64,000 nt of DNA from Amphiscolops sp. MND2022 (lineage: Eukaryota): NCBI GenBank assembly GCA_964187785.1, contig OZ076409.1, positions 37,016,001-37,080,000 of the forward strand, given 5' to 3'. Position 1 is the first letter of the stretch. The number at the start of each line of letters is the position of its first letter. A program made the translations under genes and the position numbers. Positions 688 to 54,602 of the stretch are shown piece after piece. The notes under the pieces were generated by a model, which was not told the origin of the DNA, did no database searches, and saw only the letters and a program-made list of their open reading frames with translations.

Positions 688-2527
688 CAGGGCCCGGATT
701 TTCATGCGTAAAAAATATGCCAAATATGCGTAAAAACATGCGTAAAAAATCCTAAAATATGCGTAAAAATATGCGTAAAAATTTATTGGTTTTCATACAC
801 AGTATTATACCAATAGACACATAAATGGTGTTTCAAGTTTTCAATGGTAAGTGACATTCTTTGTGGAGTTTGAATTTGTCCCATTTCTGAGAAAACTCTC
901 TCTATATCGGCAGAAACCAGGGGTGCATATCGGTAAATTGGAGCATCTAGTGGTGGCACATCAGAACTGACTCTCTCTCCTCTCAGAATTTTTGCAAAAT
1001 CTTGCAAAATTTTAAAATCAGGATTTCGGGTTAAAACAGCATCGAGTTTCTCTTTATAGTTGTCGCCTTGTACGTTGACAATAACTTTCTCCAAAATAAC
1101 AAACTGATCACACAACGACAGTCGTCCCTGTAACTTCGTAATGGCCTCTGGTAAAAAATCGAAAGATGCAACTAAAAATGCCATTTCTTGCATGAGCGCG
1201 TTGTCCATGAGGTCCAAAATTTTCGTGATTTCTGAATTATTGGGTTCTTCACTTCCCAAGTGAATCAGAAATTGTTGAAATTCGGCAAAATACTTGGCGT
1301 AATAAAACACTGCAATTAGCCACGAAGACCATCTGGTGATAACAGGCACAGGCGGTAAGGGCAACCCTGTCAATTCTCGGAATAATCGTTGTCTGCGACT
1401 ACAATTGCAGAATAATTTTGCCACCTTCGATATGAAAAAATCAGTAGCAGAATTTGTGGATCGAACATTTTCTGCAAGCCGATTTAAACCGTGGGCTAGA
1501 CAGGTAATGTGTAGCAGTTTCGGGAATAAGCCTTTTAACAGCTTGCCTGCTTTAAGCATGTAACTGGCACCATCTGATACAAATAAACGAAATTTTGAAT
1601 AGTCCATCTCGTCAAAAATCGAGCAAAGACTCGAATTAACTATTTGGTTTATGGCTACAGCATCCGTTTTCTCAGTCTCAGCAAGATTAAAAAGCATTGG
1701 TGGCTTTAATTCGTTGTCTAAAACTCCAATTAAAACACCAACCAAAAATCTACCTGCGGGGTCTGTCGCTTCGTCTACCATAATGTAGTAATTTTTCCCA
1801 GTAACCGCCTCTTTAATTGCTGATATAACTTTATTGAACTGTTTCGGCAAATAATTCTTTCGAAGTGTAGACTCGTCTGGAGCTGCCTGGCCCGACCATG
1901 TCTCCAACAGGGATTTTACTTTTCGACATTGAAGTTTGTGAAATGGAATAGCTGCTGAGGTAAATGCTTCAGTAATATGATCAAAGAATTTGTTAGAAGT
2001 TTCATCCGAAAACTTAAGCGCATCCTGTCTCTTTGCATTTAATGATAACTGCCTTTTATGCCTGTCGCTATCTATATGCTGGTGTACTCGAAAATTAATG
2101 TTCGAAGCTGAATAATCGAAGCCATTAACACATAACTTGCAAACAATTTTGTTACTCGATTGCTCGTAATTCCAGTTTTGCATACCACCAGGCAATGTCT
2201 TCACATAGTCAGAACCGTGCAATTTGTGTTTTGGCATCTTGGACAAATGCACAGTAAGCAAGATCAAATGGCAATACAATACTGTAAACACTGAGAACGA
2301 ATAAAGCAGTGCCAGACAGACAGGCACCACATAACCGCAATGTTTGCTCACTGAAATCTGTCACACTCACATACACATTCCTGAAAGTAAATTGTCACTG
2401 CAGTCCAATTCCTTGTCAATTTTGGCTAAATATGCGTTAAGTTCATGAAAATATGCGCAAAAATAAATTTAGGCCAAATATGCGTAAAAACATGCGTTAT
2501 GAACTTCTCATATAAATCCGGGCCCTG
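688..2527 (-). mobile_element. Complete hAT-superfamily (CGGBP1-like) DNA transposon, 1,840 bp
   Basis: Perfect 14-bp TIRs CAGGGCCCGGATTT (688-701) and AAATCCGGGCCCTG (2514-2527). Perfect 8-bp TSD ATTGTGTT (680-687, 2528-2535). Subterminal ATATGCGTAAAAA arrays at both ends. Confidence 0.95.
783..2237 (-). CDS. hAT-type DDE transposase (CGGBP1-like), ~484 aa from the first ATG (MPKHKL...)
   Basis: Uninterrupted ORF. N-terminal zinc finger (CKLC...H.....RH), catalytic motifs YIMVDEATD and FVSDGASYM, CLAH (CxxH), TRW, and ADIERVFS. The ORF track starts upstream at a non-ATG codon (2351). Confidence 0.9.
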   Translation of the reverse strand: MPKHKLHGSDYVKTLPGGMQNWNYEQSSNKIVCKLCVNGFDYSASNINFRVHQHIDSDRHKRQLSLNAKRQDALKFSDETSNKFFDHITEAFTSAAIPFHKLQCRKVKSLLETWSGQAAPDESTLRKNYLPKQFNKVISAIKEAVTGKNYYIMVDEATDPAGRFLVGVLIGVLDNELKPPMLFNLAETEKTDAVAINQIVNSSLCSIFDEMDYSKFRLFVSDGASYMLKAGKLLKGLFPKLLHITCLAHGLNRLAENVRSTNSATDFFISKVAKLFCNCSRRQRLFRELTGLPLPPVPVITRWSSWLIAVFYYAKYFAEFQQFLIHLGSEEPNNSEITKILDLMDNALMQEMAFLVASFDFLPEAITKLQGRLSLCDQFVILEKVIVNVQGDNYKEKLDAVLTRNPDFKILQDFAKILRGERVSSDVPPLDAPIYRYAPLVSADIERVFSEMGQIQTPQRMSLTIENLKHHLCVYWYNTVYENQ

Positions 2528-6650: not shown

Positions 6651-7247
6651 GGGAGTGACAGATTTCGTCCCAAACAGATTTCGTCCCACATGGAAATTTT
6701 GACAGATTTCGTCCCACACAGATTTCGTCCCATTTTTTAACAATAAAACAGATTTCGTCCCATTTTTGACAGATTTCGTCCCAAATAATTATTGTAACGT
6801 AGTCAGCTATGTTCACATACCCCTAGTGCCCTAAATACAGGAGCGAAGCGAAGCGGAGCGACGTGCCATGTGTCGATGCCTCAATGTTGCTACTTGGCGA
6901 AGGGAGCGAAGCGACCGAGCCATACAACAAATATGCTAACCTCTTCAAAAAAATTAAGTTCCATACATATTGGCTGTAACAGCACCGAATGAAGAATCAC
7001 TGAATAGATTATACCGATTAGCGCTTAATTTTGTGTATAGCATAGAATAATTTCCCATACTATTAGTACTGTATATACTGTCAAAAATGGGACGAAATCT
7101 GTCTAAAATGGGACGAAATCTGTGTGGGACGAAATCTGTCAAAAATGAGACGAAATCTGTTAAAAATGGGACGAAATCTGTTTGGGACGAAATCTGTCAA
7201 AATTCGACGTGGGACGAAATCTGTCTGGGACGAAATCTGCCACATTC
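6651..7247. mobile_element. Mutator-type MITE / foldback element
   Basis: Left array of ACAGATTTCGTCCCA and inverted right array of TGGGACGAAATCTGT. Flanked by a perfect 9-bp direct repeat AAACATTGG (6642-6650, 7248-7256). Confidence 0.85.
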
Positions 7248-8050
7248 AAACATTGGTCTATCAAATCAAAAAAAGTTTTTTCCAAAATTATTTCTCTACA
7301 TGTCGTGGATAAAAAACTTTTCCTCTGTACTTTTGGCAGTTTTTCTCACTTAGGCTTGCAAGATGGTAGTTAGAATCTAAATTCAGATGCTTTTAATTGT
7401 AATTTCAGTTTTTAGGGTGTAAATTCGGAGAGGATTGATGCTCCTTCTGCGTCCATATTGGATGTCATTTGGTTTTTCAGATTTAATTGTTCAAGTACTT
7501 TCTACATCCCATGAAATTAACTACTACTTTTTCTTCAAAACAAAGCAGCCATGGATAAAATTACTGATAAAATAAACTGATAGTTTCAAAAAACATGTAG
7601 AATGAAACCAAACCGAAGACGCTTAAGGACTCGCCTGCATTAAGCACTTGTTCAACAAACAAAATCATTTTACACTGGAATAATTACATTTTTCCATTTT
7701 GTTTAAACTATGAGCAATTGCGCAGTTTAATGCAACGCCTAAATTATCTTAAGAGACTGAGATATTTAAAAAAAATTTTAATTCACATTGTCGGTTGCTT
7801 TCTTGTGTTACTCAAACGGAAATCCTTGTGTAACTGTTTTGAGTGCACCAAGAACGTGCTGAGAAAGACCAAGACACTAGTTTTGTTGACCTTCAATATT
7901 TTTTATTTGACTTTTGGTTTAATTTGATTTTTGCCTATTTGATTTTTGGTTTAATAGTTTCATTTATTTCTCGGGTCATCTATTGAGTCTCAATTTTTCA
8001 TTTAAAAATCATAATTAACCGTCACTGAGTGTGAGATTCAAATTCTTGAA

Positions 8051-8475
8051 AACAAGCCAGGAACGGCCCAAGTCGGCGCCATATCTAAGGCTCAAAAGTA
8101 GCAAAAGGACTTCAATGTGTCAAGTATTCTCTTCTACAGTACCCGCGTGAAGAAAAAATCGAAAAAATTCCTAATTTTGTTGAAACTTTTTTTCGAAATT
8201 TTTTTTCGAATTTTTTTGGTCTCCGGTAAATCGCATAGTGTCGAAAAATGTAAAAGGAGGCCTTTGGGAGGTTTGAACATCCATACTTTTGCAAAAAAGT
8301 AAAGAAACGAAGGGGGGACCCTTTGGAGACATTTTAAAAATTTGCGAAAAAAAGTGTCACCAAGCCGAAAAACACCTGCACAATAAATATATTGGTCATG
8401 GGCGGGACTCGAACCCACGTCCTTCTGCTTGGCAGACATCAAAAACTATCCTAATTAACCTCTATGCTAAGTGGC
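8051..8475 (+). mobile_element. Helentron/DINE-1-like non-autonomous repeat, 5' part; split by the BEL insertion and resuming at about 16824-16935
   Basis: Begins AACAAG...AAGTCGGCGCCAT..., shared with copies at 18063 and 26059 (minus). GTGGC is duplicated at the BEL junctions. Superfamily assignment rests only on resemblance to the DINE-1 5' end. Confidence 0.55.
8395..8475 (-). ncRNA. tRNA-derived Pol III-promoter-like sequence inside the repeat (not a canonical tRNA)
   Basis: Minus strand: A-box TAGCATAGAGG (8469-8459), B-box GGTTCGAGTCC (8415-8405) within T-stem GTGGG/CCCGC, and hairpin TCTGC-CAA-GCAGA. No proper acceptor stem. Confidence 0.6.
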
Positions 8476-8645
8476 TGTTGACAAGCAATTGATAAGATTA
8501 AAAGCAAATAAGAATCGTTCCGTTTCAAGGTAGCTTGGCCTAGCGGTAGAATACAAGGCCGGACAGGTAAAATATTTCCTATTTCAGACAAAAGATCTAA
8601 ATATTTTTTCTTGATTTCAGTAAAGTAACCTTGAGAAAAGGCCTT
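8476..8645 (+). repeat. 5' LTR of the BEL element (truncated; matches only the first ~200 nt of the 3' LTR)
   Basis: Near identity to 16418-16615 apart from a 29-nt deletion between two CCGG. Similarity stops after GAGAAA(A)GGCCTT and no PBS was found. Confidence 0.8.
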
Positions 8646-8741: not shown

Positions 8742-9337
8742 ATGGTACTTATTGTAGCGGCTAGTTCCGTTGATCATGCTCTTGACACAATAAACCCCGA
8801 AAACCGAAAAACCTATAAACAGAAAATTTTCTCAATCCCACGAAAAATCCTCGAAAAATTGTGCAAAACTTGCTCTCTAAAGATCTTGCCGAAAAAACTG
8901 ACATCATTATTTGGCATGATGTGCTGAATAACAGTATGTCTAAACATGAGAGCAACAATTATCGAGCTTTACCAGTCCTACAATTGTTAGAAATTTTGAA
9001 ATCGATTGAAAATAAACTCCGGGCTCTAGTGTACTGCCACCGATTTCGTACACCGAACATTTATCAAACTTTCAAGGAATTAGAAAACTCCACGAACATT
9101 AAAGTGTTCAGCATCGTTGAAGATTTCATTTCCACGAGAAAACATAAAGATCCCGACTTTCTCAAGAAACTCAAGGCATTACACCAGAGCCCCGAGATTG
9201 AAATCAAACACATTGACTTCATTCTGCGCACCGAGAGCGAGCTTGACGCTATCACCGACAAAAGCCGCCCCAAGCGTCCCAGTAAGCGCGCCCGAAAGGC
9301 CATCAAGAGCGCAGCTGCCGCCGCTGCTTCGTCCTAG
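8742..9337 (+). pseudogene. Accessory ORF upstream of BEL gag, SGNH/GDSL-hydrolase-fold-like, one frameshift at about 8840
   Basis: ORF 8742 (MVLIVAASS...KIFSIP) joins ORF 8861 (..VQNLL..DIIIWHDVLNNS..ALH..) and ends in a basic tail KSRPKRPSKRARK. Motif spacing resembles SGNH blocks I, II, III and V. Confidence 0.55.
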
Positions 9338-9374
9338 ACCCCTTCCAACCGTCTTTACTGTACTGTAGTTACGG

Positions 9375-9530
9375 TGTCCGGACTTCATTGTCCGGTTGAA
9401 ATTCCTACAGTAGTTTACCCGTCTTCTTGAGTTGTGTCCGGACTTAACTGTCCGGTTGATACTCAGAAGTCTACTCCCCGTCTTTCTTCCTGCCGTTTGG
9501 ACGGTGTCCAGACTTTATTGTCTGGTTGAA
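9375..9530 (+). repeat. Three spaced copies of a 6-bp-stem hairpin in the BEL leader
   Basis: CCGGAC-ttcatt-GTCCGG (9378-9395), CCGGAC-ttaact-GTCCGG (9438-9455), CCAGAC-tttatt-GTCTGG (9508-9525). Confidence 0.85.
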
Positions 9531-9881
9531 GTTTTTTCGGCCTTCTTCCGCATCTTCAGCACTTAGTATTGGACGAACCATCATTTTTTTCGGGAAGAGC
9601 GTGTTTTTAAATCATCGTCTCGTCCCATGTAACTTCTCCCCGTGTCTTGTTACTATTTTTAAAAACAAAAAATTGAATTATTCCAATACCGTTGCTGTTA
9701 TCGCAAGATACAGCTTCCATCAACTCAACGCCCATACCGTTAACCCGAAATCTCTTTCGGTCAGCTGTGTCTAGGCTTAATTGCTTGGTTGACGCTGTCA
9801 AAGAGATCACTCCTCTATCTACCTTGAATAACCCGTTTCTCGCTACTTCAATTCATTCTCTAACAAAAGATCACGTCAAAG

Positions 9882-12800
9882 ATGACCGACACCAGACAAG
9901 ACAAAGTTAGAAAACTTTTCGAAAGTCGTGCCAAAGCTGAGACCGAGTTACAACGATTGCAAGAAAAAGTTCAAGATGCCGTGGAGAACAAAGACAGGCG
10001 AGTCCGAGTCGAAAGACTTGTTACTTCCTGCGATGAAGCAATGACGAAACTGTTTGTCAAACATGAACAACTTTTCGAACTCGCTGGCAAAACAGAAGAG
10101 CCATCACTTGTTAAACAAGATTTGGAAGCTTGGTTGAAGGAAGTGACCACTCGAAACAATGAGATCTTGAAGAAGGCTCGTGATTACATCGATCAATGCC
10201 CACTAGTCGATGGAGCATCTCAATCGTCAACGACTGTCACCAAGAGAAAGCAACCAAGCAAAACGTCAGCTTCAAGGACATCTAGACAATCGAGAACATC
10301 CAGTCAACGGCAACGAGACTTGCTAATTGCTAACTGCCAAGCAACGTAAAGAGGAGATAGAAAGGCAAAACGAAGCCGCCCTTAGAATTGCAAAGCAACA
10401 GCAGGAGCTGGAACTCGAACGTCTACAGGAAGAACAGGAACTACTTAGACTGAGGACCGACTGACTTAAGAAAGAACAAGCACTTCGAGTTGAACAGTTA
10501 GAAGAAGAAAACCGAAAGAAACTAGCTGAAGCAACACTCACTGAGCTTGAACTGACCGAGGACTTGTCGGACGCTCAATCGGAGTTTCTAGACACCGTTT
10601 CACAACTAGCGGCTTCGACTAAAGCTGACGATGCTGTCCGAGTCAGCGAGTGGGTTAACAATTCACCCGTTGCTAGTGCAAGTGATCCCACAAATACTGT
10701 AAGTTTGGAACCGAACGCCGTTATCGTCACTACTGCAACACAAAATTCAGTCAACAGAGGAGCTCCCACAACTAACCCTCCACCTAGTATCCCAGCAGTG
10801 ACTCCTATCGCCCCTCAAGCTGCGCCAACGATCAACAACATACCACTAGCTACAGGACCAGGTTCAATAGTTTACCTACCAAACACTGACCACGTCCAGG
10901 TTCCCCAGTCGACCACAACGCTTCAGGGGACAAATGCTCCATCGGTAACTGCTTCAGCCTCAGCTTCTTTGGCAACCGCCACGTCAATTCCGATTTCAAC
11001 AGTCACCGTTCCCGCAAGTCATGTTCTTCCGAATTTATCAGCCTGGACGTTTCTGACAGGACCAAGTAACCCGCCCGTGACAGTAAACCCAATAACTTCG
11101 AGCGCCACTGTGTTTCCGACAGTTTTACCGGCTACTAGTGTCGCCCCAACAGCTTCGCCTGTTATCCCAGTCTCCGCTGGAGGAACAGTATACTATATTA
11201 ACCCGACGTCTCTTGCAACTGTGCCCGCACCAAGCAGCGCACCAGTACCGACTACTTTCCCGGCCGTTCCTTCAACAGCAACACTATTGGCAACCCCTCA
11301 ATTCGTCAATGTACCGCAACCTGCAACCACCAGTTTCACTGTCCAAGATCTTGCGCAACTGTTAGCGTCATCGAAGAGGGACCACCTCCCAGAATGGAAA
11401 CTGGCCTAGTACAGTGGGGATCCACTTCAATGGCACGAGTGGTTCGGCCAGTTCAGGAGTGCCATCGATTCAGCACCCCTTACCGTTGATGTGAAACTGA
11501 CCTACCTGAAACCACTGGTGTCCGGTAAGGCAAAAACCGCTATAGCCGAGTTTGCGTACTGCTGTACTATGTACAAAGACGCGCTGAAAACGTTGGAACG
11601 AAAGTTTGGGCAACCTCAGACTGTTGTTAGTGCCTACCTCGACAAACTTGCCAACTATCCCCCAGTAAAGATGCACAATAGCGACAGTATCTTCAGCTTT
11701 CTGCCGCAGTTTCCTCACTGGTTGGTGTTTTCAAATCCTTGAACTACCTGCAGGATATGTCGAGTGCTTCTCTCCTGGGCCAAGCGGTTCAAAAACTTCC
11801 ACCAAATTTGAAGGAAGCGTGGTCGATGAACACCGTCAAACGGAATCTGGATCGGCTGACTTTGATTCACTTTAACGACTGGCTAAAAGAGAAAGCAGAG
11901 GCACACGAAAGAATGAAAGCCGCCTCCAGTAAACCAAGATCTGAAGAAGATCCTGTCACTACCGTAACCAAGACCATAACAGGAACCAAGGTCTTTGCGG
12001 CGACCACCAGTAACCAAGGAAACAGCGCTAGCAAGGTTAAAAGTGAGAAACAATGTGTAGCTTGCAAGGACAGTCACCCGCTTTGGCGTTGTACAGTATT
12101 CCGCCGAAAAACTCCGACAGAGGGAACCAAGCTAGCCGCTGAGATCAAACTTTGCTTCTCTTGTCTAAACGAAGGACATTCATTCCGGCAATGCCCGCAA
12201 CCAAGAAAATGCACAAAAGACGGCTGTAGCAGCTCTCATAACCCCTTACTTCACGGGTCCGACAGAATTTTTCCACAGAAAAGTCCCGGCGACGCGAAAC
12301 ATTCTCAACGTAAAACGACAAAGGTCAGCCAAAGACAAACAGGCAGCAAAAGCTCCGGCATGCATTCCGTAACCGACGACAAAGGCTTGTTGCAGATAAC
12401 AGAAGTCGAATTGACATCGCCGTCGAGCTCTGCTAAAATTCTTGCTTTATGTGACTCAGCTTGTAGTCATTCATGGATCTCGAGAAAATTAGCCGACAAA
12501 CTACAAGTTAAGGGCTCAACAACCAAGTTAACCGTACATGGGATAAACTCCCAAAAACTGATTGACACGGAAACAGTTGAGCTTAAGTTGACACCCGTTC
12601 ATTCAGGTGGCTCTTGTTCAGCTTTTCCTGTCACTCCTTACGTCCGAGACGATTTGAAAGTTGGAAACGACACTATCGACGTTGACAAACTGAAAACGAC
12701 TTACCCGCATCTGGAACCGATCCCCCTCAGCAAGTACAGCTATTCAGACGTTGAGATGATCCTTGGTCAGGATTTCTTCCACTGTATCCGCCCATTGGAG

Positions 12801-15800
12801 TACTTCGGAGCCGACCGTTCGAATACTCCAATAGCCGTCCGTTCACCGTTGGGTTGAGTACTCAGTGGTCCGCTTCCTTCCACCACGGGTCTTTTCTCGA
12901 CATGTTTCAAAGCTGTCGCTAGCACAGAGAATGATTCTATTCTTGCCGAACAACTTCGCAGCTGGTACGACATTGAGTCATATGGTGCCTACAAACAAGT
13001 TGACTCTCGCTCCGCAGCCGATGCGCGAGCGATGAAAATCCTCGAAGAGACGACATTCAACGATGGCTGCCGTTACCAAGTTGGAATGTTGTGGGCCGAT
13101 GAAGAAAGTACGTTGCCGAACAACTACTTCTCGACTCTTGTACAACTTAAGTCGTTAGAACACCGCCTTGGAAAAGATCCTCAACTGAAAGAGAGTTACA
13201 GCAAGACTATCAGAGAGGACTTCGAAAAAAGGTACATCGTTCGAGTCGATAAATCGTTCCAGTCGATAAATGTTTCCGTACCGATAACCGTCGTGAGTGG
13301 TACTTGCCACATCACCCTGTAGTACACTAACACAAACCCGGCGAAGTGAGAAGAGTTCTCAATGGTGCTGCAAAGTTCCATGGACACTCTTTGAACAACG
13401 CCCTTCTAACCGGTCCGGATCTACTGCAAAGTTTGATCCATATCCTCTTCAGGTTCCGTCAATTCCCCAAGGCCGTGTCCGCTGACATTGAAGGTATGTT
13501 CTTACAAGTGGGAGTTATACTGAAAGACCAACCGTCCATTCGTTTTTTGTGGCGGGAGGATCCATCAACTGAAGTTGCTGTTTTTCAGTACGTAAGACAC
13601 ATCTTTGGGTCGAAGGACTCTCTGACTTGCGCAAATTACGCTCTGAAGAGGACCGCAACCGACAACGCCGACAAATTTCCGAAAGCCGCTCAAAGCATGC
13701 AGACGAATTTCTACATGGACGACTACCTCGAGTCTAGTCCCACTGCCGACGAAGCTACCCAGAAAGCCAAAGACTTAGTGAAATTGCTTTCGCTGGGTGG
13801 ATTCAATATAACTAAGTTTGTGTCTAACGACAGAAACATCTTGCAACAAATCGAGCCAAATTCTGAGTGCCAACCCAACGATGGTAAACAGTTACCGACA
13901 ACTGAGGAATCATCGCACGTACTTGGCCTCAAATGGAACCACGTCCCAGATACACTTGTTGTTAGCCGAGGCACCACTCCCGACACAAACCGAACTGTTA
14001 CTCAACGAGTTGTTCTCAGCCTCGTCTCCGCCGTGTACGACCCTATTGGGCTCGTAGCACCGTACACCGTGAAAGCCCGACTTCTGCTGAAAGACAAATG
14101 GAGACAGAGCGGTCAGAAATGGGATGATCTTCTCCCGGAGGACATTGTAACCAAGTTTTTGGACTTGGAATTCTGAATTGGGAACTCTTAGTGAACTCGT
14201 GATCCCAAGAAGTTACTTCCAGCAACATGTCGAGTGTTTGGAGTTACATATGTTTGGTGACAGTTCGCAAGATGTCTTTAGTGCCGTAGCTTTCCTCAGA
14301 GGGAAAGTCAACACTGGAAATGGTTGTTCTACTGAAATAGACTTTGTGTTTGGCAAAGCACGAGTTGCGCCAATGAAAGCACTTACCATTCCCAAACTCG
14401 AACTACAGGCCGCGTTGCTCGCTGCGAGATTGAGGAACGAATGGCAACGCGCGCTCACTTTGCACATTGATCGAACATTTATGTGGACTGACAGTACTAC
14501 GGGTCCTTCAGTGGCTACATTCTCTTGAGAAACAGCCGGTATTCGTAGCAAACTGTGTTGCAGAGATACTCGAACTGACAACTACAGATGAGTGGTACCA
14601 CGTGCAATCCGCCGACAACCCTGCTGACGCCGGAACTAGAGGTTTGTCTGCCAAGACTCTTCTGCAAAGTAGTTGGTTAAATGGCCCTGAATTCCTGAAA
14701 ACAGATGAATGGCCCTTCAAGCTTTCCGAAGACTTTCGACAGAAACTGAAGCAAGTAAAACTGGATACGACTGACGAACTAGTTCCTAAGTCTTCTTCAA
14801 TGCTGTGCGAAACCCAAGTTGCAATTGTAAAAACTTTCGAGTGGCAGAAGTATTGCTCATACGAGAAACTCCTGCGCATTGCAGCCTATGTTTTGCGGCT
14901 CTCACCAAAGAACAGAGACTACAGGACTATCGCAGGCGCCATTATTGATCCGGCCGAACTTGAAAATGCCGAACCACCGCCTTTTCTACCTGAGTCAGGC
15001 GGAATCATTCCACGTTGAGAAAGTAGTTTGCTGAAGTCAACCCCGCTCAGTAAAATTTCAAAACTTGCGCAATTTTCTCCCTTCATAGGACCCAACGGGC
15101 TCCTTAGAGCTTCTGGTCGAACAAAAAACCTTGACGTTGCAACCTTCGATGTGAAACATCCCATTCTGTTGGACGCCCGACATCCCTTGGTTCGACTCTT
15201 GTTAGAACACACGCACGTTCAACATTGTCATCAAGGTGTTGACTACCTGCGCGCTCTGATACAGCAACGCCTTGCGGTGGTAAAACTGCGAGCAACTTTG
15301 AGAACAATAGTTTCGAGGTGTGTTACATGCCGCAAGCGAAGGGCTGAAACCATTGCTCCAGTGATGGCGGACCTCCCGCGAGAAAGACTTGCTTTCAAAG
15401 AACCCCCTTTCTCGAACACAGGTGTAGACTATCTCGGACCCTTCTTTGGAACCGTGAGGCGGTCCACTGAAAAACGTTGGGGATTCCTTTTCACATGTCT
15501 CACCACTCGCGCTGTCCACTTCGAAGTAGTACTTAGCATGGACACCAGTAGCTGTGTGATGGGAATAGAAAAATTTTGCGCCCGTCGTGGAACCCCATGA
15601 GTAATCTGGTCCGACAATGGAACAAACTTCGTTGCTAGCGATAAAGAACTTTTGTCCAACATCAACAACTGGAACCAGCAAGTCCTCGGAGAAACACTTG
15701 TAAAGAAAGGCATAAAGTGGAAGTTTAACCCACCAAGTGCTCCCCATCACGGAGGTGTTTGGGAACGCCTAGTTCGGAGCTTCAAGCTTGTTTTTTATGC

Positions 15801-16301
15801 CGTTTTAGGAAACCGCCGTTTGACAGACGAAGTCTTGACGACCACGTTCTGCTTGGTAGAACCATGTCTCAATGCTCGTCCAATCACTCCCGTGAGCCCT
15901 GAAGCTACTGACCTCGACGCTCTCACACCAAACCACTTTCTACTGGGAACTGCCAGCTCAACATTGCCATCACACTTCCGCCCCGAAATAGACCATCGAA
16001 AGCGATACGTTCGAGCTCAAGCGTACTCAGACGCAATTTGGAATCGTTGGCTCAAGGAGTACGTTCCAAACCTCAACCGTCGCTCCAAATGGTCCAAGTC
16101 GTCAGACCGAGACCTGAAACCGGAGATCTCGTCTGATTAGTCGAACCGACCGCACCAAGAGGACACTACCCACTTGGTCGCGTAGTGAAGTTAAATTACG
16201 GCACCAATGCCATCGCCGGTTCAGCCGAAGTCAAGACATCTACCGGAAACCCAGTTGTCAAGCTCGCTCCCGTTCTCCCCATTCCCGAACAAACTATATA
16301 A
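9882..16301 (+). pseudogene. BEL/Pao gag-pol polyprotein, disrupted by many stops and frameshifts
   Basis: Coiled-coil N-terminus; capsid-like region (LPEWKL..YSGDPLQW); CCHC knuckles at about 12055-12245; protease LCDSACSHSWI; RT (ADIEGMF, FYMDDYL); RNase H (HMFGDSS, TIPKLELQAA, NPADAGTRG); integrase (H..H, CVTC, GVDYLGP, SDNGTNF, GGVWER). Confidence 0.93.
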
Positions 16302-16417
16302 TTTTGTTTTTGCTTCATTTCACCGTACATTATTTACATTATTATATTTCTTGTAACATGTAAAAAAAGTTTTTATTTGATTGACCCGTTTCTTCACATC
16401 TTCTTGGGCCCGGAGGA

Positions 16418-16823
16418 TGTTGACAAGCAATTGATAATATTAAAAGCAAATAAGAATTGTTCCGTTTCAAGGTAGCTTGGCCTAGCGGTAGAATACAAGG
16501 CCGGTATTCGACCGGCCTAGGTTCAATTCCCGGACAGGTAAAATATTTCCTATTTCGGAAATAAGATCTAAATATTTTTTCTTGATTTCAGTAAAGTAAC
16601 CTTGAGAAAGGCCTTGCTATTTGTGTTACTGTTGTTTGTAATTGTTGTCAAATATTATTTAATCATTTCGTTTTTTTTGCCGCTTTACATATAATAATTT
16701 GATTGCCTTTGTCATCATTGTGGATTCGAAACTTGATAGAAATTGGCCTCAAATAATCAATTGTTAACTGCCCTTGTTTTGAAAAACGATCTATAGAGAC
16801 CGACCATTCTATAGTTATCTTTA
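16418..16823 (+). repeat. 3' LTR of the BEL element (~406 bp; ends TA rather than CA)
   Basis: Follows the PPT, matches 8476-8645 and is bounded on the right by the TSD GTGGC. Confidence 0.75.
16471..16540 (+). promoter_or_regulatory. tRNA-like internal Pol III promoter within the BEL LTR
   Basis: A-box TGGCCTAGCGG (16478-16488), perfect 8-bp hairpin AGGCCGGT-attcg-ACCGGCCT (16498-16518) and B-box GGTTCAATTCC (16520-16530). Confidence 0.65.
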
Positions 16824-18062: not shown

Positions 18063-18360
18063 AACAAGACGGGAACGTCTAAAGTCGGCGCCATACCAAG
18101 GCTCAAAAAGCGCAAAGTTTTTAAAATTGTAGAAGGGGGGACTCTCTTGGCTTTTTGAAAATCCAGTTTGTTGCAAAATATCAAAAAAATGAAGGAGCGA
18201 CCCTTCGGAGACATTGAAAAATTTCGAAAAAAAGTCTCACCAAGCTGGAAAAAGGGGCGGGGAAAGTCTCATAGCGTCGAAAAATTGGAAGAGGGACTCT
18301 TCTGGGTTTTGCATTTCAAGGTAGAGGCCTTTGGAGGCGTTCAAAATCAAGTACTGAGAA
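18063..18360 (+). mobile_element. Helentron/DINE-1-like repeat, truncated copy
   Basis: AACAAGACGGGAACGTCTAAAGTCGGCGCCATACCAAGGCTCAAAAA, homologous to 8051 onward. Right end approximate. Confidence 0.55.
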
Positions 18361-19160: not shown

Positions 19161-19672
19161 TACCGAAAAGCCAAAGGGTTCCCTTTGATGTTTTTTTTTG
19201 GCACTGTTCGACTTTTGTTCTATTTTTTTTCAAATTGAAGCCCTTTTGATTTTTAGAAGGAACAAAGCTTCTTACCAACATAGAGACCTCCTTTTTTCAG
19301 GCACTGTGCGACTTAGCAAAGGAATATTTTATCACAAAATTTTAAGGTTTTCGAGGTTTTCTGTTAAGAAAGACCGATTTCCGAGTCTTTAGGGGGACCT
19401 GTTGAAACCTCGGTGAGACTGATGAAAGTTGTGAGCCTAAAGGGGCCCACCTTTGAGTAATTTCGGTAAGTTGCGTCTTGTTTTCGTATCAAACTTTTCC
19501 AAAAATTCGCATCTGGTTTTTGCGATCTTTTCAGTCAAATTGTAAGAGTCATTTTTAACCCCTCCGAAAAAGTTTGTTGTAACAGTATACGAAAGAGATC
19601 GCAGTGACACTGCTCCTTTTGTTGGTGATTAGTTTCAAGTTGTTTTTCTGGTAGTACTACGATTAAATTAGG

Positions 19673-20643
19673 CGATTACCAGAAATTTCGTCGTCGGAAA
19701 TTTCGTCGTCAAAATTTTCGTCGCGAGAAATTTCGTCGTCGGAAATTTCATCGTCGGAAATTTCGTCGTCGGAAATTTCGTCGTCGGAAATTTCGTCGTC
19801 AGAAATTTCGTCGTCAGAAATTTCGTCGTCGGTGATTACGTTCTATAAAACGTCGCATTTTCTTTTATCTATTAGGAACCGTCTAATTATTGAGTCTTAA
19901 TAATTATCGATAACTGTACAATTATTACTATCATTGACTACTTTCTGTTATGGTTTTGAGAGAAAAGTAGAGAAAACCCCCCAATGCAATGGATAGGATT
20001 ATGTCGACATCAATTATTTCATTGGACCAAAGTTTCAACGCAAACGATGTCGACATTATGGTATTTGAACCTTCTTGTTTTTTATGGTCTTATTTACCTC
20101 GACGCAGTTTGGGTGGAAGATGACATGGTCCAAAATTCCCCCCGGAGCAAGCTTGAATTGTTTTGTAAAGCCCCGGTTTAAACAAAATGTTTCAGACCTT
20201 ATCCCCCCAGATACACCTTGTTTCTCATTTCCCAACACGAAGTTGTTTCGACACTTAAAGCAAAAATTATCATGATTTTTTGATAATTTTCTGACGAAAA
20301 GCAAAAATTCCCCCTGGAACAAGCTTGAATTGTTTTCCACCGGTAGGACGGAAAATAAACCATTGCTCAATAAGAGTCTTGATGAGTTGATTGAATGCAA
20401 TTAACTTTTTGACTCAATTTTGGTGTCAAAATGAAATTTGTTCCTGAGATCTCATTTTAATAATTAAATAATTGAATAATTCAATTGATATCTTTTGGTG
20501 AACACTGTTATTCTAATCAATACGACGAAATATCTGACGACGAATTTTCTGACGACGAAATTTCTGGATTTGCTATTACGACGAAATTTCCTACGACGAA
20601 ATTTCTGACGACGAAATTTCTGGCGACGAAATTTCCGCCTCCC
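19673..20643. mobile_element. Foldback/Mutator-like MITE with 15-bp subterminal arrays
   Basis: About 10 copies of GGAAATTTCGTCGTC at 19681-19830 and inverted GACGACGAAATTTC copies at 20522-20636. AATTAGG flanks both sides (19666-19672, 20644-20650). Confidence 0.8.
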
Positions 20644-21094
20644 AATTAGGTTACAGTGGAAATTGACTTCCAAGACGCATTTGAATACTTAAACAGTCTG
20701 GTGAAACTACTAATGACTCTGGGGTGAAACGATTTTACAGTAAAATGGGGTTAAACAAAGACACACCAATTCAAGAGCTACCTTGGCTTCAATTTCTCAT
20801 ATCCGACACTTTAGGGTATTTTTCGCCTCTCAAATGATAGCCATACTATGAAACATGTTGGATCAATTTATGGCTTTTCTTTGAAACCGGTTTTCTTGGT
20901 GATTTGTAAAGACTTTTTTGAGTGCAAATATTTCGAAAACAGTAGAGAAACATAATTGCCGTCAGAAGTTGTTTCCCAGCTACAGAATATTGATAGGTTC
21001 CCGTTTCTGAATATTGTTCTTTGCAGCAATGGATCCTTGTGTTAAAACACGAATTTAGGTGCTGTTTTCCAATCAATGCTCAAGTCAAAAACGT

Positions 21095-25624: not shown

Positions 25625-26059
25625 TTTTAGGCGATGCTTTTTGAAGTGAAACACGACTATTAAAGTGACGTTTTTTTTCAATCCACATTAGGTGAAAAAA
25701 ATAGTTCTTGAAAGTTCTACGAAAATTTATGATACCAAAATGAATCCATTTGGGAAAATCATCATCTTTTTCTTCCTTTGTAACATACAATACCGGGAGA
25801 GACCAAAGGGTCCCGCTTTTGGTTTTTTTGACACTGACTTATTTCGAAAAAAAAATTCACCAAAGTGTACCAATCTATTTTTTGATGTTTTGCAACAATG
25901 GATGTTAATAAAGGCAAAAAAATCACCCCGGCGCGCCAATTCGGTCGAAGTTTTTGGGGATTTCAGGTAATGTAGAAGAGAATCCTTCGACAATTTGAAC
26001 TCCTTTGGTTATTTTTGAGCCTCAGATATGGCGCCGACTTAGGCCGATCATGGCTTGTT
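25625..26059 (-). mobile_element. Helentron/DINE-1-like repeat nested in the old gypsy element
   Basis: Reverse complement begins AACAAGCCATGATCGGCCTAAGTCGGCGCCATATCTGAGGCTCAAAAA. The far end resembles 16905-16935. Inserted in a T-rich site. Confidence 0.6.
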
Positions 26060-29227: not shown

Positions 29228-29888
29228 TCTGCGAACACTATATGCCAAAACAAAACACTTACCACAGCCGAGAAATTTTCTTCTGGGTGAAACAAGAGGT
29301 TGGCGAAATACCCGAAGAAAACTGGAAAACACTAACACCATCGGAAACAAGCTCTGTCACTTCAAAAAGATAAAACAAGACCTACTCGAGGCGTCTCATC
29401 AATAGTAAAACTGACAAAAGTATCCAGCAAAAAATAATACGTGGAAAAACCCTGAAAATCAAATCCGTGGAACTTATCACCCAAAGCAATCACGAACAAC
29501 GACACACTTCTACCATACCTCCCGCACTTCTGATATATACATATGTAATTAAATTTATATTATAATTATATTTGTATAAATATAAGAAGTGCGGGAGGTA
29601 TGGTAGAAGTGTGTCGTCGCTCGTGATTGCTTTGGATGATAAATTCCACGGATTTGATTTTCATGGATCTTTCACGTATTATTTTCTGCTGGAAATTTTT
29701 GTCAGTTATACTAATGATGAGTCGCCTTGAGTAGGTCTTGTTTTATATCTTTGAAGTGACAGAGCTTGTTTCCGATGGTGTTAGTGTTTTCCAGTTTTCT
29801 TCGGGTGTTTCGTCAATCTCTTGTTTCACCCAGAAGAAAACTTCTCGGCTGTGGTAAGTGTTTTGTTTTGGCATATAGTGTTCGCAGA
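29228..29888. repeat. Inverted duplication with ~304-bp arms and an almost purely A/T spacer
   Basis: 29228-29531 is the reverse complement of 29585-29888 with scattered mismatches. The ORF track shows the peptide CEHYMPKQNTYHSRE..FWVKQE on both strands. Confidence 0.92.
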
Positions 29889-36726: not shown

Positions 36727-37410
36727 ACCTCAGGACCGCAAAACTGATTTGTTCGATTTGGAATGGGAAAGTTCAATTTCTTTAAAAACTGCGTTGAGTC
36801 TAAGTTTGTCCTGAACTGCTACGTAACAGGTACCTGTAAAAACTGATAACGAAAATAACGAGAAATTTAATGGTAATAAGACCTCGGGAATTGATTAGTG
36901 TGTTTTGCCATATAAGGTTATCGAATCTTTTTCGACCTAGACTAAATCTTAATCCCAACAGTAAACTCCATCTTATCATTGGGTTGTGTTCCGGATTTTG
37001 ATTTTACATCAGTCTCGGTAGACATAACATTTAGTCCATACTCTGTTTCCTTATATGGAAATTATAAAAACCCATACTATGATCATACCATAACTTGAAT
37101 GTTTTCATATAAGCTCATTGCATGAACTAAAAGTTTTATTTATTCCCTTTATAAGAACTAAATGTTTTATTTATGGTCATTGAATTAAACTAAATGTGTT
37201 ATATACGGTCATTATACACCAATTTTTTTAAAGTGAAGAGCATTCTAATTTAGTTGAATACCGAAGCGGAGTTGACAGCCAATTGAAAACGACTTAAAAC
37301 AAAGGCAAATCAATTCCAAAACAACTGAAGCAAGTTATATTTCAAGTGAATCTAGTAAAGAATTAACAAACTTGCGGAAGCCAATGAAAAATTCAGCCAA
37401 CTCAACCTCA

Positions 37411-38129: not shown

Positions 38130-38729
38130 TCCTCCCCGGGCCGTAGTTTGTCGTCCTCGGCAAACGAGAGGATGTTCGCACCCAAAGGGTACTCTGAGAT
38201 TTACACAAAAAATCTTACATCAGAGCTGAACTAAATTGATCTCACATTACTATTCTTTTCGTTTCGTTACTGCATGTTTAGCATTCCAAAGCCATCAAAT
38301 TCAAAAAGCACTAGTTTCGAGGTTAAAAACTCTACAGTCGGCTCTTTTTAAAAAAAGAAAGAAACTTTTTCACTAATCACTCAGTCCAAGTTAAAATTTC
38401 TTTTTCTAAAATTGAGCCCCTGCGCGGCCAGGTGAGTAACAACAGCTTTTGGGCTTAGTAGAAGTTTTAAATTCAAATCAAAACGGGAGGGTACCGAACC
38501 GGGACCCGCCCAGAGGACATAGCTATATCGTATTGTTGCATTGGCAGCATAGTAAAGTAAATATCAAACAAAAAAAATTTCGAAATCAAACTTCATTGCA
38601 CCGAAAGTTTTCAGCACCAGTGAGATAGCGTAGCATAACTAAAACCAAAAGTTTGCACCAATGTTTTGACGATAAGGTCTTCTGTGCTTTACAGTATTCC
38701 AGTGGTCTAGGAGGGTCCAGAGGACTCCT

Positions 38730-41700
38730 TTACCCCAACAGCTGATCTTGTGGGGCTTCCTGCGTGGAAGTGCTGGCCAAGGTGTTCACTGTATTTTGGA
38801 CGGCCGAATCGGGCGCCTCGGAGGGGGGCGATGATTCCTCATCCATAGTCAGTAGGTTGTTAAGCTCCGACTCTATATCCGCCGCCTCCATGTTTGAGAT
38901 ACTAGTCTCCGCTTCGTCTCTTACAGGGGTAGCGGCATCAGAGAGTGTGAAATTGTCGGTCATGGGCTCCTCTGATGGTGGCATGACGTTTGAGATATCG
39001 TCTTGTACCCCTTCCATCAATGACTCATCGGTGTCTTGAGTGAGGTGGGATGTGGGAGGGACGGTCTGGGGGCTGCCAGAGGCAGCTTCGCCCAACCCGC
39101 TAGTTCCCGGGATAGCTTCGGTTGGCTCCAGGTTTGGCAGTCCGTCCGCCAGTTCTTGATGACCATGCTGGGTGAATAGCTGCTTGAATGTTCGTATTCC
39201 CCTAGCGTACTCTTCGCCTACAGCTCGAGTCTGTTCTCGCTGGAGACCATGCAGGCGCACGAATATCTCTAGCGCAATGCGCGGGTTACTGGGAACGTCT
39301 GTGCTCACGGGCAGGTCCTTCCTGTTGGGTTCTCTCGCTACAGTTGGAACAGTCGTTAGCAGCTGTTGAAAAGTCTGGTGGATGGCGAGGTCTACGAGCT
39401 CCGGCTGGGCCCAGCACGTGATGGTATTTAGAATTCTGGCGGTATGATCACGGGGCTCCGCTCTCGCACAGTATACCCTGGAAGTGTCGCATGCATAGGG
39501 ATATAACAACCCAGTGGGCTCCTCTCCTTTCCGGCGACCACCCAATCTTTGGATAATCGTACTCAAGATGCGCAAGACAACTGGCACGTCCCACCCATCG
39601 AAAGTTGCCACTGTTCCATTGTTTGGGTTAAGGGGGGCATGTAGCCAAGCGACCGGGTGGATTTCCATTGGCAGTGGGAGCGAGCTGCGTGCTCGCGCTT
39701 TGATCGTCATTAGGTAGTTGTGCTCCACCTGTTGGCGGTCTTTGATTATGGTGTATGCCATGGGAGGTCGCAAGTTGGCGAAGTTGCGTATTCTTGATTG
39801 ATAGGTGGGACCCTGAAGGGGCCCATTGGAGGTCACGAAGTGTAGAATTGAGAGCGATGGGGCTACTGCAGCCACTCGCAAGGCCTGCGTGGGATACCGC
39901 AAGGCCATAACTGCGCCGAAGATGGGCCAGATTATAGAAGCGATGAGTGGGATCAGGTCCTCTGTTTCCACGAGCATCAATGTTGCCATTTGTGTCGGGA
40001 ACAGGAACCCTGGAAGCTGACTGGGGTCTCGGTTGATAGCCGGGCACTCATCCAGAGGATGCATGATGCCAGCAACATTGACCCAGGTGGAATAAATCCA
40101 CACCAGGAGAGCTTGAATGTTCAAATCTAGTTGCGCTTTCAACTTCAAGGAACCCACCGGGTCCAGAGTTTCAATAAGCGCATATATCCAGCTCCTTTGA
40201 TTTTGCGAAAAGACCAAGAAGCTGAACAGGGCTGAGCCTCCTTTGTTAAGCACGAGTTTCTGTATGAGGGATGACGGTCCTCGGTACATCATAGTCAACC
40301 CCACGGCCATCAAATATGCTAGCATTTCGGTGATGGTGGCTCTTTCCATGGCGTCCATGTACAAGCGCATCCGCTGCTCATCTAGGCCGTACTCGGCCTG
40401 TACTAGGGAGGGAAGACAGAAGGGAGAGATGTTGTGAAGGAACACAGGAAATGGTATGCCTAGCCGCTCCGCGACTTGGCTTAGAGGTTCCCGCAGTTGG
40501 TCGTGCCATGTTTGGTACGTGTGTGTTGGCTCTCGAGTATTCCTTCGTTCGATATCTTGGGCCAGTATTGACAGCATGGCTAAGGTGGGTGATCTTAGCC
40601 CAGGTTCAGCGTCCAACGACACTTGCGCTATAGGGAAGATGGACGAGTACTTCCTATCGCCTTGAATCGTTTCAGTTTTCTTCATCAGGCTCGTGAGTTC
40701 TTTGTGGAACTTGGGTTCGTGCGTCTTTTCATCCAGGGTGGATTCATCTCGGCGTTCAAACCAGAGGTTATCCACCAGGATATCACGCTCATTCTCGTTT
40801 GGGTCATTTACTATCCGGTCTCCGCGCTCGTTCATCGATCGACGGGCCATTTCCATGCCATAGTCGAACGCTGTGGCCTCATCTATTATCATTTGGGAAT
40901 TGCCGCGGTAACCAACGTATGACTGGAGGGCCTTGGAGACTTCGGCGATGAAGGCCGGGTATGAAGCTTCGCAGGGACGCCAACTGTTGTTATTGATGCG
41001 TAGGTTGGGTGCCACAATGTAGAAAGGCAGATCTCTCGCATATGCGGCCTCCGTCACTAAGTACAAGAATTGTTGATGGGTTCGGGGAAGGTATACGTAG
41101 CCTGGAGGTGACATAAACACTGTCCCAGTGGTGGCTTTCTTTCTGCGCATGGCTTGGACAATGTTGGCCATGATCTCTACATAGTTAGTTACCTCGTCAG
41201 TGACGAACCCCTCGGTGAACCTCTCATGGTCCGGCCGGAAGAATTCCAGGGTGCCCCGCAGAGCGAGGTGGTCTATCACGTTCGAATACACCAACAACGG
41301 AGGAGGTGGGATTGTCTCTGTTCCCGCTTGGGTGAACATTTTGTCAGTCACCTCGGCCATCTCGTTCAGTGTGGTACAAGGCATATTCAGTATTCTGACA
41401 TCCATGAGGGTGTTGTGGGAATTGAAGGAAGACTTCATCGTCGAGTCGACGAAGAAGGCTATCCTAGTTTTCTGTAGGAGGTCCTTTCCCATGGGCAAGA
41501 TTGTAACAGGGTCCCGCGCATAGTTCTTGGTTCGCAGGCGGTCTTCGTCAAAGCGGCCAGGGCGCTGTCGGAGGAAGCTGTCGGGAACACGCATGTACGT
41601 TGAGTTTACTCTCTCCAGTTCTGCCCGCATGCATTTGAACCATGGGGGGCATCCGTCCCGAGTGAACACGGGTTTCTTGACGGGGCGATTGTAGAGTACT

Positions 41701-42842
41701 CCCACTGTGGCTTTCTCTATTTTCTGCCTAGTGGCGAGGTCCCCTGTTCCAGTAGCGACCTCGAACTTCTGTCGTAGTGGGTCTTCTGGTAACTTCGTGG
41801 TTGGCACTTCCCGCTGGAGACGCAGTGCGTCGCGTGCAGTGATGTCCAGCTGCCGTTTTTCTGTATGTGTGAGGAGCTCGCGCGTTACTCTCGGTCTCCT
41901 GGTCTCTGGTCGTGTGGGCGATGCAGCGGGGGGTTGCGGGGTAGTGGTCGAGCTCGATTGCCCAGCCTGCTCGGCCGCCTCTCTAGCTCGCTTTCCAGCG
42001 TTAATCTTCTCCCGGAGGTCTACCACGGTGCTGGCCGCCTTGCTCTCAGCTTTCTGCTGTTCTCGTTGGCGTTCTCGCAATTGTGGGTCCATCTGGAAGC
42101 CTACTAAGCTGGCTGGTTCCGAGACTTGTGGTTCGGTTCTGGAGGACGTTTGGATCAATTCTTCATAAGAGTCCTTAAACGTCACTGTTCTCGCGGGGCG
42201 GCTCTCTCTGGGCTGTTCCTCGCTCAGGGTGGTGCTTGTTATGTTGCCTACTTGCACCCCTCCCCCCTGAAAGGCAGATGGAAGCATGAAGTTGGATGTC
42301 TGGGTTGTCAGTAGTTGGATGCCATCCGATGCCAGAGGCATGGGCGGTGTTAGCACTGGGGGTGGCACCATAGGCAGTGTGCAGCTGAATCGTACAGGGT
42401 GTGGTGAGGGCAATGGGGTTGTAGTTGGTGTCTGCAATACCGATTGCGAAATGCGCAGTGATCGCTCCTGGTCCATGGGAGGCCTAGTAGGCTCTCCAAA
42501 GACTAAGTGGGAGCGGGGATCTATCAGGCTATGGGTCAAGTCGTACCCGTGCCAGGCACCGTCGCGAAAGGTGGCAGAGCGCTCTATCGGGCCGACCCGG
42601 CTGGTGATGGTGAGGCTGACATCAGAGTACGTCGCCTGGGCTTGGATTTGGGCGATGATCATGGCAAAGCCAGCGATCATTGTGGGTGTCGCTCCGTTTA
42701 GAAGAGTGTCTTGAACAAGAGCTAGTTGGTCGACTCGACCATCTATTTCGCTCATCATTGGAGGTGCATCGCTCCTTGTGGTTTGTTGGGCACGCGCAGC
42801 GTTTTGGGGTGCAGGCAGGCGGTTTCGCGCAGATGCGTCCAT
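38730..42842 (-). CDS. Intact ~1,370-aa accessory protein at the env position: disordered N-terminus, central SGNH-hydrolase-like domain, hydrophobic helical C-terminal region, acidic tail
   Basis: Uninterrupted 4.1-kb ORF (first ATG at 42842; frame open up to 42959). Motifs RIAFFVDS, MPCTT, LLVYSNVIDHL, VFMSPPG and WRP..SY..FIAEVSKAL at 41465-40925. No signal peptide seen. Confidence 0.8.
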   Translation of the reverse strand: MDASARNRLPAPQNAARAQQTTRSDAPPMMSEIDGRVDQLALVQDTLLNGATPTMIAGFAMIIAQIQAQATYSDVSLTITSRVGPIERSATFRDGAWHGYDLTHSLIDPRSHLVFGEPTRPPMDQERSLRISQSVLQTPTTTPLPSPHPVRFSCTLPMVPPPVLTPPMPLASDGIQLLTTQTSNFMLPSAFQGGGVQVGNITSTTLSEEQPRESRPARTVTFKDSYEELIQTSSRTEPQVSEPASLVGFQMDPQLRERQREQQKAESKAASTVVDLREKINAGKRAREAAEQAGQSSSTTTPQPPAASPTRPETRRPRVTRELLTHTEKRQLDITARDALRLQREVPTTKLPEDPLRQKFEVATGTGDLATRQKIEKATVGVLYNRPVKKPVFTRDGCPPWFKCMRAELERVNSTYMRVPDSFLRQRPGRFDEDRLRTKNYARDPVTILPMGKDLLQKTRIAFFVDSTMKSSFNSHNTLMDVRILNMPCTTLNEMAEVTDKMFTQAGTETIPPPPLLVYSNVIDHLALRGTLEFFRPDHERFTEGFVTDEVTNYVEIMANIVQAMRRKKATTGTVFMSPPGYVYLPRTHQQFLYLVTEAAYARDLPFYIVAPNLRINNNSWRPCEASYPAFIAEVSKALQSYVGYRGNSQMIIDEATAFDYGMEMARRSMNERGDRIVNDPNENERDILVDNLWFERRDESTLDEKTHEPKFHKELTSLMKKTETIQGDRKYSSIFPIAQVSLDAEPGLRSPTLAMLSILAQDIERRNTREPTHTYQTWHDQLREPLSQVAERLGIPFPVFLHNISPFCLPSLVQAEYGLDEQRMRLYMDAMERATITEMLAYLMAVGLTMMYRGPSSLIQKLVLNKGGSALFSFLVFSQNQRSWIYALIETLDPVGSLKLKAQLDLNIQALLVWIYSTWVNVAGIMHPLDECPAINRDPSQLPGFLFPTQMATLMLVETEDLIPLIASIIWPIFGAVMALRYPTQALRVAAVAPSLSILHFVTSNGPLQGPTYQSRIRNFANLRPPMAYTIIKDRQQVEHNYLMTIKARARSSLPLPMEIHPVAWLHAPLNPNNGTVATFDGWDVPVVLRILSTIIQRLGGRRKGEEPTGLLYPYACDTSRVYCARAEPRDHTARILNTITCWAQPELVDLAIHQTFQQLLTTVPTVAREPNRKDLPVSTDVPSNPRIALEIFVRLHGLQREQTRAVGEEYARGIRTFKQLFTQHGHQELADGLPNLEPTEAIPGTSGLGEAASGSPQTVPPTSHLTQDTDESLMEGVQDDISNVMPPSEEPMTDNFTLSDAATPVRDEAETSISNMEAADIESELNNLLTMDEESSPPSEAPDSAVQNTVNTLASTSTQEAPQDQLLG

Positions 42843-54586: not shown

Positions 54587-54602
54587 TAAAAACTATTCCA
54601 GA

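Follow-up and report, generated by a model that had tools for sequence, protein, structure and literature searches.

SGNH esterase domains are known as cargo of several kinds of mobile elements. They occur in the ORF1 of LINE and Penelope elements (PMC3905857; PMC4120745). The esterase of ZfL2-1 is slow, binds acidic phospholipids, has been proposed to contact RNA through an arginine-rich motif, as in lambda N, and carries a histidine, His191, that is specific to transposons (PMC3905857). Vesta LTR elements of rotifers carry a GDSL ORF3 that is shared with Athena elements (PMC5408684), and SGNH ORFs have been reported in Ngaro elements (PMC9210276) and in a fish Helitron (PMC4021074). Esterases are thus a recurrent cargo of LINE, Penelope, Ngaro and rotifer LTR elements. 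The accessible part of a survey of BEL/Pao elements makes no mention of an esterase (PMC3118150), and a term scan of the available text of PMC13524379 gave no match for the terms used. A BEL-borne SGNH gene was not listed in searches of the open literature.

The DNA analyzed here is a stretch of 64,000 nucleotides from Amphiscolops sp. MND2022, called the window in the following, and all coordinates are positions within it. The original prediction for this DNA was that a BEL element carries a stand-alone SGNH-like ORF upstream of gag, and that a gypsy element in the same window recruited the same fold independently. Our results agree with the first part, and point to a different history for the second.

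ORF0 and its BEL/Pao host element

The upstream ORF, here called ORF0, is a broken frame on the plus strand at 8742-9337, and the sequence read-out contained all the motifs that had been quoted for it. Its 5' piece (8742..8840, plus strand) begins with an ATG at 8742, comprises 33 codons running from MVLIVAASS to SIP, covers strand 1 and the block I Ser (motif A/G-A-S-S), and ends at the break. The 3' piece (8831..9337, plus strand) continues in a second frame and carries block III (WHDxxNN, here in IIIWHDVLNNS), the block V His in ALH, and a C-terminal tail rich in Lys and Arg (9260..9334, plus strand), followed by a stop at 9337. The two pieces are identical to the intact relative P0002 at 29/33 and 154/168 positions, respectively, so ORF0 is not a chance ORF. 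A profile HMM built from the family alignment A2 matched the frame of the 5' piece with E 8e-8 and the 3' piece with E 5e-61. The frame does change once, at about 8831-8842, as had been predicted, but the change is not a one-base slip, because the copy measures 596 nt from ATG to stop and is 22 nt shorter than the 618 nt of 205-aa relatives. The block II Gly stretch is gone from the window copy, in agreement with the suggested loss of the Gly after SIP at the break. The tail had been described as NLS-like; it is a candidate RNA-binding motif or NLS, and may serve to bind RNA instead of directing nuclear import.

The location of ORF0 between the LTR and gag was borne out. ORF0 is on the plus strand, its start lies 96 nt past the end of the upstream LTR match, and its stop lies 544 nt ahead of the gag ATG at 9882. 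The decayed gag-pol region (9882..16290, plus strand) is split by stops and frame changes into ten pieces of at least 100 aa. Pfam matches to DUF1759 (2e-12), Peptidase_A17 (4.9e-24), Integrase_H2C2 and DUF5641, in this order, assign the element to BEL/Pao (Belpaoviridae). The part of the 5' LTR that matches the 3' LTR (8476..8645, plus strand; direct repeats D5 and D6) was aligned by blastn with 16418-16615 in 166 of 202 columns with 30 gaps. Both copies start with TG and are alike over 170-200 nt, and the 5' LTR is without 29 nt that are found in the 3' LTR. At the other end, a purine-rich tract is followed by the 3' LTR from 16418 (together 16405..16615, plus strand, up to the end of the part matching the 5' LTR). 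CA ends or 3' ends of the LTRs, a primer site and a target duplication of the element were looked for and not found, and no ORF0 remnant was found downstream of the 3' LTR.

Other arrangements around the start of ORF0 were considered and rejected. An insertion of ORF0 that splits the 5' LTR would leave an LTR remainder after ORF0, which is absent (alignment score 32, shuffled mean 30). A position of ORF0 inside a long LTR was rejected as no remnant lies past the 3' LTR, an argument that fails if the 3' LTR is truncated. A primer site over the ORF0 ATG, compared with a tRNA-like stretch of the LTR, gave a short match, and codons 2 and 3 vary among relatives.

The tRNA-like stretch itself lies at 16476-16540 (plus strand), and a shortened copy is present at 8534-8568; the 29 nt missing from the 5' LTR belong to it. 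It contains A-box- and B-box-like motifs that surround a GC-rich hairpin. ARAGORN reported no tRNA in the stretch and Rfam no family at gathering score, and its fold was not significant (z -1.3). A dispersed repeat at 8049-8475 adjoins the 5' LTR and has relatives at 18063-18252 and 25966-26061; its end (about 8400-8475), on the minus strand, resembles by eye the head of a tRNA-derived SINE. A TCAAGGTAG-like word at 8527-8537 in the LTR also occurs about 70-110 nt upstream of ORF0 in three of the metagenome loci described below (L001, L002 and L009), which may be a chance match. Elsewhere in the window, 783-2360 (minus strand) is an open hAT-type transposase frame of 525 aa (DUF659 3e-10, weak Dimer_Tnp_hAT). 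Arrays of 15-nt and 21-nt units form facing inverted repeats (19667-19861 and 20506-20653; 6655-7243) reminiscent of foldback or MITE termini, and a near-perfect palindrome occupies 29228-29888, with 312-nt arms that are 93% complementary and a 37-nt spacer.

Predicted fold, family and active site of ORF0

ORF0 represents a stand-alone family of proteins of about 200 aa with a predicted SGNH fold, which has been missed by annotation. The fold was modeled with AlphaFold2 on P0002, with 66 alignment rows. The model, with a pLDDT of 75.5, shows a core of five strands and ends in a basic helix, and a three-layer flavodoxin-like fold with five parallel strands is predicted over residues 1-178. A wide structural search returned the catalytic domain of OatA as the best match, aligned over 142 residues at Z 9.5 and an rmsd of 3.5 A, and Z >= 8 was reached by 11 of 48,161 chains. 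Among the best 26 rows, 24 were esterases or O-acyltransferases, six of them titled GDSL, and the other two had uninformative titles; a second look gave the same result. The esterases and O-acyltransferases without a GDSL title are presumably SGNH members as well, some of them according to Table 2 of PMC10792757. The scores are moderate (rmsd at least 3.5 A), yet the list of matches is uniform. In Foldseek searches of PDB and of viral models, nothing reached E <= 0.001; a GDSL lipase ranked second. Atlas features led to clusters in which 21-23% of the members are Lipase_GDSL_2 (score 0.90). Although neither profiles nor Foldseek gave a significant match, the SGNH-type chains at the head of the structural list and the Atlas lead support the fold proposed originally, which ORF0 very probably adopts.

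The family is large and diverse. A search with the 3' piece matched 289 proteins among 378 candidates, and 96 of the 119 relatives among the matches listed are 194-222 aa long. A profile from 66 relatives reached 797 clusters (50% identity) at E <= 0.001 and 483 at 1e-10. No new relative among the matches listed (n=149) is longer than 282 aa, and no longer or fused relative was found among 8000 candidates of 425-2000 aa, which is a weak test. Ten clusters were looked up, and none is named; six have 9-46 members on different contigs, which fits repeats, and four have 1-4 members. Alignment A2 comprises 95 rows, namely 10 proteins from the search with the 3' piece, 80 of the 149 profile-search proteins (near full length) and 5 loci. 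The stand-alone form is evident from 86 of its rows, in which at most 5 residues precede the first strand. The 24 Pfam families matched by the 95 members include no SGNH/GDSL family, and Lipase_GDSL is absent. Weak matches to TPR_ZFYVE26 (12/95) and KaiA_N (7/95) were rejected as short and inconsistent with the fold, and the scores shown were below the cut-off. For three family members, no significant match was obtained in NCBIfam or PHROGs, the sequences of solved structures gave no match to ORF0 at E <= 10, and relatives were not found in viral contigs or in prokaryote genomes.

The candidate active-site residues are widely conserved in A2, with Ser8 in 89/95 rows, Gly34 in 89/95, Asn70 in 79/95 (Ser in 14 rows), Asn71 in 87/95 and His155 in 90/95; the block I Ser was placed from the sequence together with the secondary structure. 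Ser, Gly, Asn and His occur together in 67 of 91 ungapped rows. Ser and His are both present in 85 of the 95 rows and in the window copy, consistent with the claim that ORF0 retains the candidate Ser and His. The spacing of the blocks is 26/36/85, compared with 22/30/87 in ZfL2-1 and 34/29/84 in TAP, as listed in Table 2 of PMC10792757. His66 (90/95) precedes the oxyanion Asn by four residues, the register in which ZfL2-1 has His191 (PMC3905857), and Cys106, found in 61/95 rows, may be the partner equivalent to Ser228 of that protein. Neither the canonical GDS motif nor the DxxH acid is found in the family. Ala7 precedes the Ser in 88/95 rows, and Asp occurs three residues before the His in 0/95 rows and Glu in 2/95. 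In the part of PMC10792757 available, the residue before the Ser in 30 surveyed SGNH structures is mostly Asp, Asn, Gln or Thr, and a main-chain oxygen replaces the acid side chain in 5 of the 30. A Ser-His dyad is thus possible in ORF0, and Glu161 (86/95) or Asp67 (87/95) could be an alternative acid, judging from conservation in the alignment. Activity and inactivity of the ORF0 proteins are about equally probable.

Relatives in LINEs and hairpins downstream of ORF0

A metagenome scan yielded nine ORF0 relatives among 31 pattern matches, with 30-41% identity, and some of them show what lies downstream of the gene. In two LINE families, members of the ORF0 family stand immediately ahead of ORF1, which is a new observation. 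In L004, the ORF0 stop is 99 nt ahead of ORF1, which is followed by an APE-RT ORF2 (L004 417-4838), and by eye its ORF1 shows a Cys/His pattern of the PHD-like kind. The second LINE family, represented by the near-identical copies L005 and L007, has the same layout with a gap of 101 nt; the ORF1 of L007 has only a weak Pfam match, to C1_2, and the two families share 52% identity in ORF1. The resulting three-ORF LINE layout (L004; L005/L007) consists of ORF0, a Cys/His-finger ORF1 and the APE-RT ORF2. In L001, L002, L003 and L008, which end 223-532 nt past ORF0, no next ORF could be identified; L006 and L009 are truncated inside ORF0, and no BEL gag was seen in the nine loci. The position upstream of LINE ORF1 shows that the family extends beyond LTR elements, and points to exchange among retroelements. 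The copies in the BEL element and in LINEs very probably share an origin.

Four hairpins on the plus strand, all with a 6-bp stem and a UUNNNU loop, span the window leader between ORF0 and gag. Hairpin 1 (9361..9412; loop 9384-9389) is set on an outer stem and has a fold z of -4.0. Hairpin 2 (9423..9469; loop 9444-9449) has a fold z of -5.1, and hairpin 3 (9504..9529; loop 9514-9519), in which one pair is changed on both sides from G-C to A-U, has a fold z of -2.9. Hairpin 4 (9750..9807; loop 9777-9782; fold z -3.9) lies about 100 nt upstream of the gag ATG, and its arm and loop equal those of the hairpin of L004 in 15 of 16 nt. A hairpin of this kind is present within 200 nt past the ORF0 stop in 5 of 7 regions (the window, L001, L002, L004 and L005, but not L003 and L008), against a background of 24/638 window tiles, 5-38/300 shuffles per region and 1/8 upstream regions. 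The arm-plus-loop pattern has eight matches in 81 kb searched on both strands, and all eight are on the sense strand past ORF0. A looser pattern made from the window only had 6 matches in the loci, 4 of which were at the post-ORF0 position, and 20 in the window. When nine hairpins are compared, pairing is seen in 49 of 54 cells, and 5 of the 6 pairs vary on both sides. The L005 hairpin shares the loop but not the arm. Of the whole regions (100-143 nt), those of the window and L005 alone folded better than shuffled sequence, those of L001, L003 and L008 did not, and Rfam reported no family at gathering score in the window leader. The pattern was defined after the sequences had been inspected, and L001/L002 and L004/L005 are related pairs, so the hairpin is a strong lead, not proof. 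The relatives P0107, P0137 and P0260 read into sequence that matches the window leader, up to 9409-9473, which indicates a linkage of the gene with the leader in other copies, but not with gag.

The family is very basic, and the fraction of Lys and Arg in the tail has a median of 0.39 (93 family tails). The ORF0 protein might bind the hairpin, although this is less probable than not. The hairpins alone could also be a translation or packaging signal.

Origin, possible function and comparison with known systems

The occurrence of the family in LINEs and a related hairpin behind it favor the exchange of a cassette over separate capture from the host. We consider it slightly the better wager that ORF0 and its hairpins form a cassette that is placed ahead of the structural gene and has been exchanged between LTR and non-LTR elements. 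ORF0 would then be the first gene translated from the element RNA, and its Lys/Arg tail would attach to the hairpins of that RNA. The esterase domain, which is basic and probably a slow enzyme with a Ser-His dyad, might bind or deacylate membrane lipid, and this contact might tether the element RNP to membranes for assembly or transport, as has been proposed for the ZfL2-1 esterase. Such a cassette could pass as a unit between LTR and non-LTR elements.

A stronger version, in which ORF0 and the hairpin are a self-contained protein-RNA module built on an Asp-less SGNH enzyme, is possible but distinctly less probable. It draws on the analogy with lambda N/boxB and Rev/RRE. By this analogy, an arginine-rich tail would sit on its cognate stem-loop and either bring the RNP to membranes or switch on the downstream gene. 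The module would insert before BEL gag and before the ORF1 of three-ORF LINEs, and would be represented by hundreds of families across retroelement classes.

The cassette might also have kept the SGNH fold for RNA binding or as a scaffold and have lost catalysis, like the OSK domain of Oskar, and regulate translation or packaging through the hairpins. The absence of the triad Asp (0/95), the Ala ahead of the Ser and the very basic proteins (median pI 10.4, core 10.0) are consistent with this, and OSK, a known non-enzymatic RNA-binding SGNH fold according to the accessible part of PMC10792757, matches the P0002 model with Z 6.4. However, at about 30-40% identity, 85 of 95 rows still have both Ser and His, whereas OSK has lost them, and a main-chain oxygen, as in 5/30 SGNH structures, or else Glu161 or Asp67, could take the place of the missing acid. 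A non-catalytic cassette is rather unlikely in our view.

It is less likely still that ORF0 is the 5' end of another repeat, LINE-type or non-autonomous, that recombined with or was inserted into a single BEL copy. The BEL-ORF0 link is known from one copy, the window element, and wherever the context of a relative could be resolved, it is a LINE. The match between the LTRs ends at 8645, 96 nt short of the ATG, with the LTR end, primer site and duplication not found, and the upstream read-through peptides vary among close relatives. These observations would fit a passenger, but ORF0 is on the same strand as the element, in the expected slot, without flanking repeats and without an LTR remainder behind it, and the hairpin array extends almost to the gag ATG. 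In addition, a quick tree of 97 rows, in which the deep order was left open, placed the window subfamily on a branch of its own (14 rows, SH-aLRT 99), apart from a LINE-borne branch (10 rows, SH-aLRT 94). ORF0 is probably a regular part of this BEL lineage.

The original prediction favored convergent recruitment, which can be read as BEL and gypsy elements each capturing a host SGNH gene. The gypsy ORF on which this rests does exist. It is a large extra ORF (38730..42842, minus strand) that is open, lies between pol and the 3' LTR, and is kept in relatives. The element spans 17.5 kb (37399-54890) inside an LTR pair (37399-37698 and 54591-54890) that is 97% identical, and the ORF, of 1370 aa, has 11 relatives among 1274 candidates and clusters of up to 342 members. 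A domain at 40896..41483 (minus strand) has an alternating strand-helix order with D-S after the first strand. This SGNH-like order of elements and an Atlas lead, with GDSL clusters at ranks 11 and 24, fit a separate capture, as does the comparison of the domain profile with ORF0, which gave a probability of 0.1% for both the whole ORF and the domain only; the gypsy profile is shallow (Neff 1.6). On the other hand, the domain is only possibly SGNH-derived. Its model has a pLDDT of 54.9 and a best Z of 5.1, with SGNH-type chains scattered among unrelated ones, and by eye the block V site reads W-R-P in the 10/10 rows of alignment A3 that cover it, with Arg and no His. The domain might represent an SGNH derivative without activity and with an origin of its own. 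No cellular donor was seen among the hits examined, and a family common to LINEs, with a His at the transposon-specific position, makes a retroelement donor likelier than a host gene. Two independent captures are very improbable, and the convergence suggested for two LTR clades finds no support in this form, since the ORF0 family also precedes LINE ORF1, which points to exchange. GDSL cargo in LTR elements has, moreover, already been described for rotifer Vesta, in the accessible part of PMC5408684.

The gypsy element also contains, between the integrase and the large ORF, a frame of 331 aa at 43175-44170 (minus strand). The C-terminal half of this frame resembles a macrodomain by eye, and Pfam, PDB, NCBIfam and PHROGs gave no support.

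Finally, a nuclear counter-defence enzyme that deacylates a host silencing factor or chromatin, with the hairpins as a separate signal for downstream translation, would fit the NLS-like tail, the absence of a membrane segment or signal peptide in P0002 (top 19-residue hydropathy 0.9) and a diversity of 797 clusters that would suit a host conflict, but the ZfL2-1 esterase showed no deacetylase activity on histone peptides (PMC3905857), and we regard it as the most improbable of these readings.

The cassette reading can be compared with the known SGNH proteins as the accessible parts of the papers describe them. The cellular proteins OatA, TAP/TesA, PAF-AH and Oskar OSK resemble ORF0 in the predicted three-layer fold (Z 6.4-9.5), but share only 9-15% identity with it, and ORF0 is without the block I Asp and the block V Asp and is unrecognised by the Pfam GDSL models. 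The SGNH ORFs of Ngaro (PMC9210276) and Helitron (PMC4021074) are, like ORF0, stand-alone genes on a mobile element. They belong to different element classes, and the Ngaro ORF follows the recombinase and is recognised by a standard SGNH domain model. The GDSL ORF3 of bdelloid Vesta and Athena/Terminon elements (PMC5408684) is similar to the BEL ORF0 as SGNH cargo of an LTR element and as a type shared across element classes. However, the Vesta ORF3 is a 3' ORF, with clones of 1.3 kb and intact catalytic residues, and neither a hairpin nor a BEL element is described for it in the accessible text; in position, the gypsy ORF of the window is a closer parallel to it than ORF0.

The esterases of the ORF1 proteins of CR1, L2 and RTEX LINEs and of Penelope, including ZfL2-1 (PDB 4C1B), share with ORF0 the SGNH fold, the 5' position and a basic surface, as well as a Pro-Gly block II, a His four residues before the oxyanion Asn and an arginine-rich motif, as far as the available descriptions go. 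4C1B is not among the structure matches listed for the P0002 model. In the LINE proteins the domain stands behind a coiled coil and has GDS and a full Asp-His-Ser triad, whereas ORF0 forms a gene of its own before gag or before a complete ORF1 with Cys/His fingers; it has A/G-A-S, lacks the Asp and ends in a basic tail. ORF0 also differs from ORF1 type IV, as 86/95 rows start at the first strand and L004 and L007 have a separate ORF1. If the cassette reading holds, SGNH cargo would extend to BEL/Pao, a three-ORF layout would be added to the LINEs, and a gene together with its RNA signal would have moved intact between LTR and non-LTR elements. Compared with the esterases described so far, the ORF0 family offers a small, stand-alone and highly diverse version beside a candidate RNA target, so that lipid binding, catalysis and RNA binding become separately testable.
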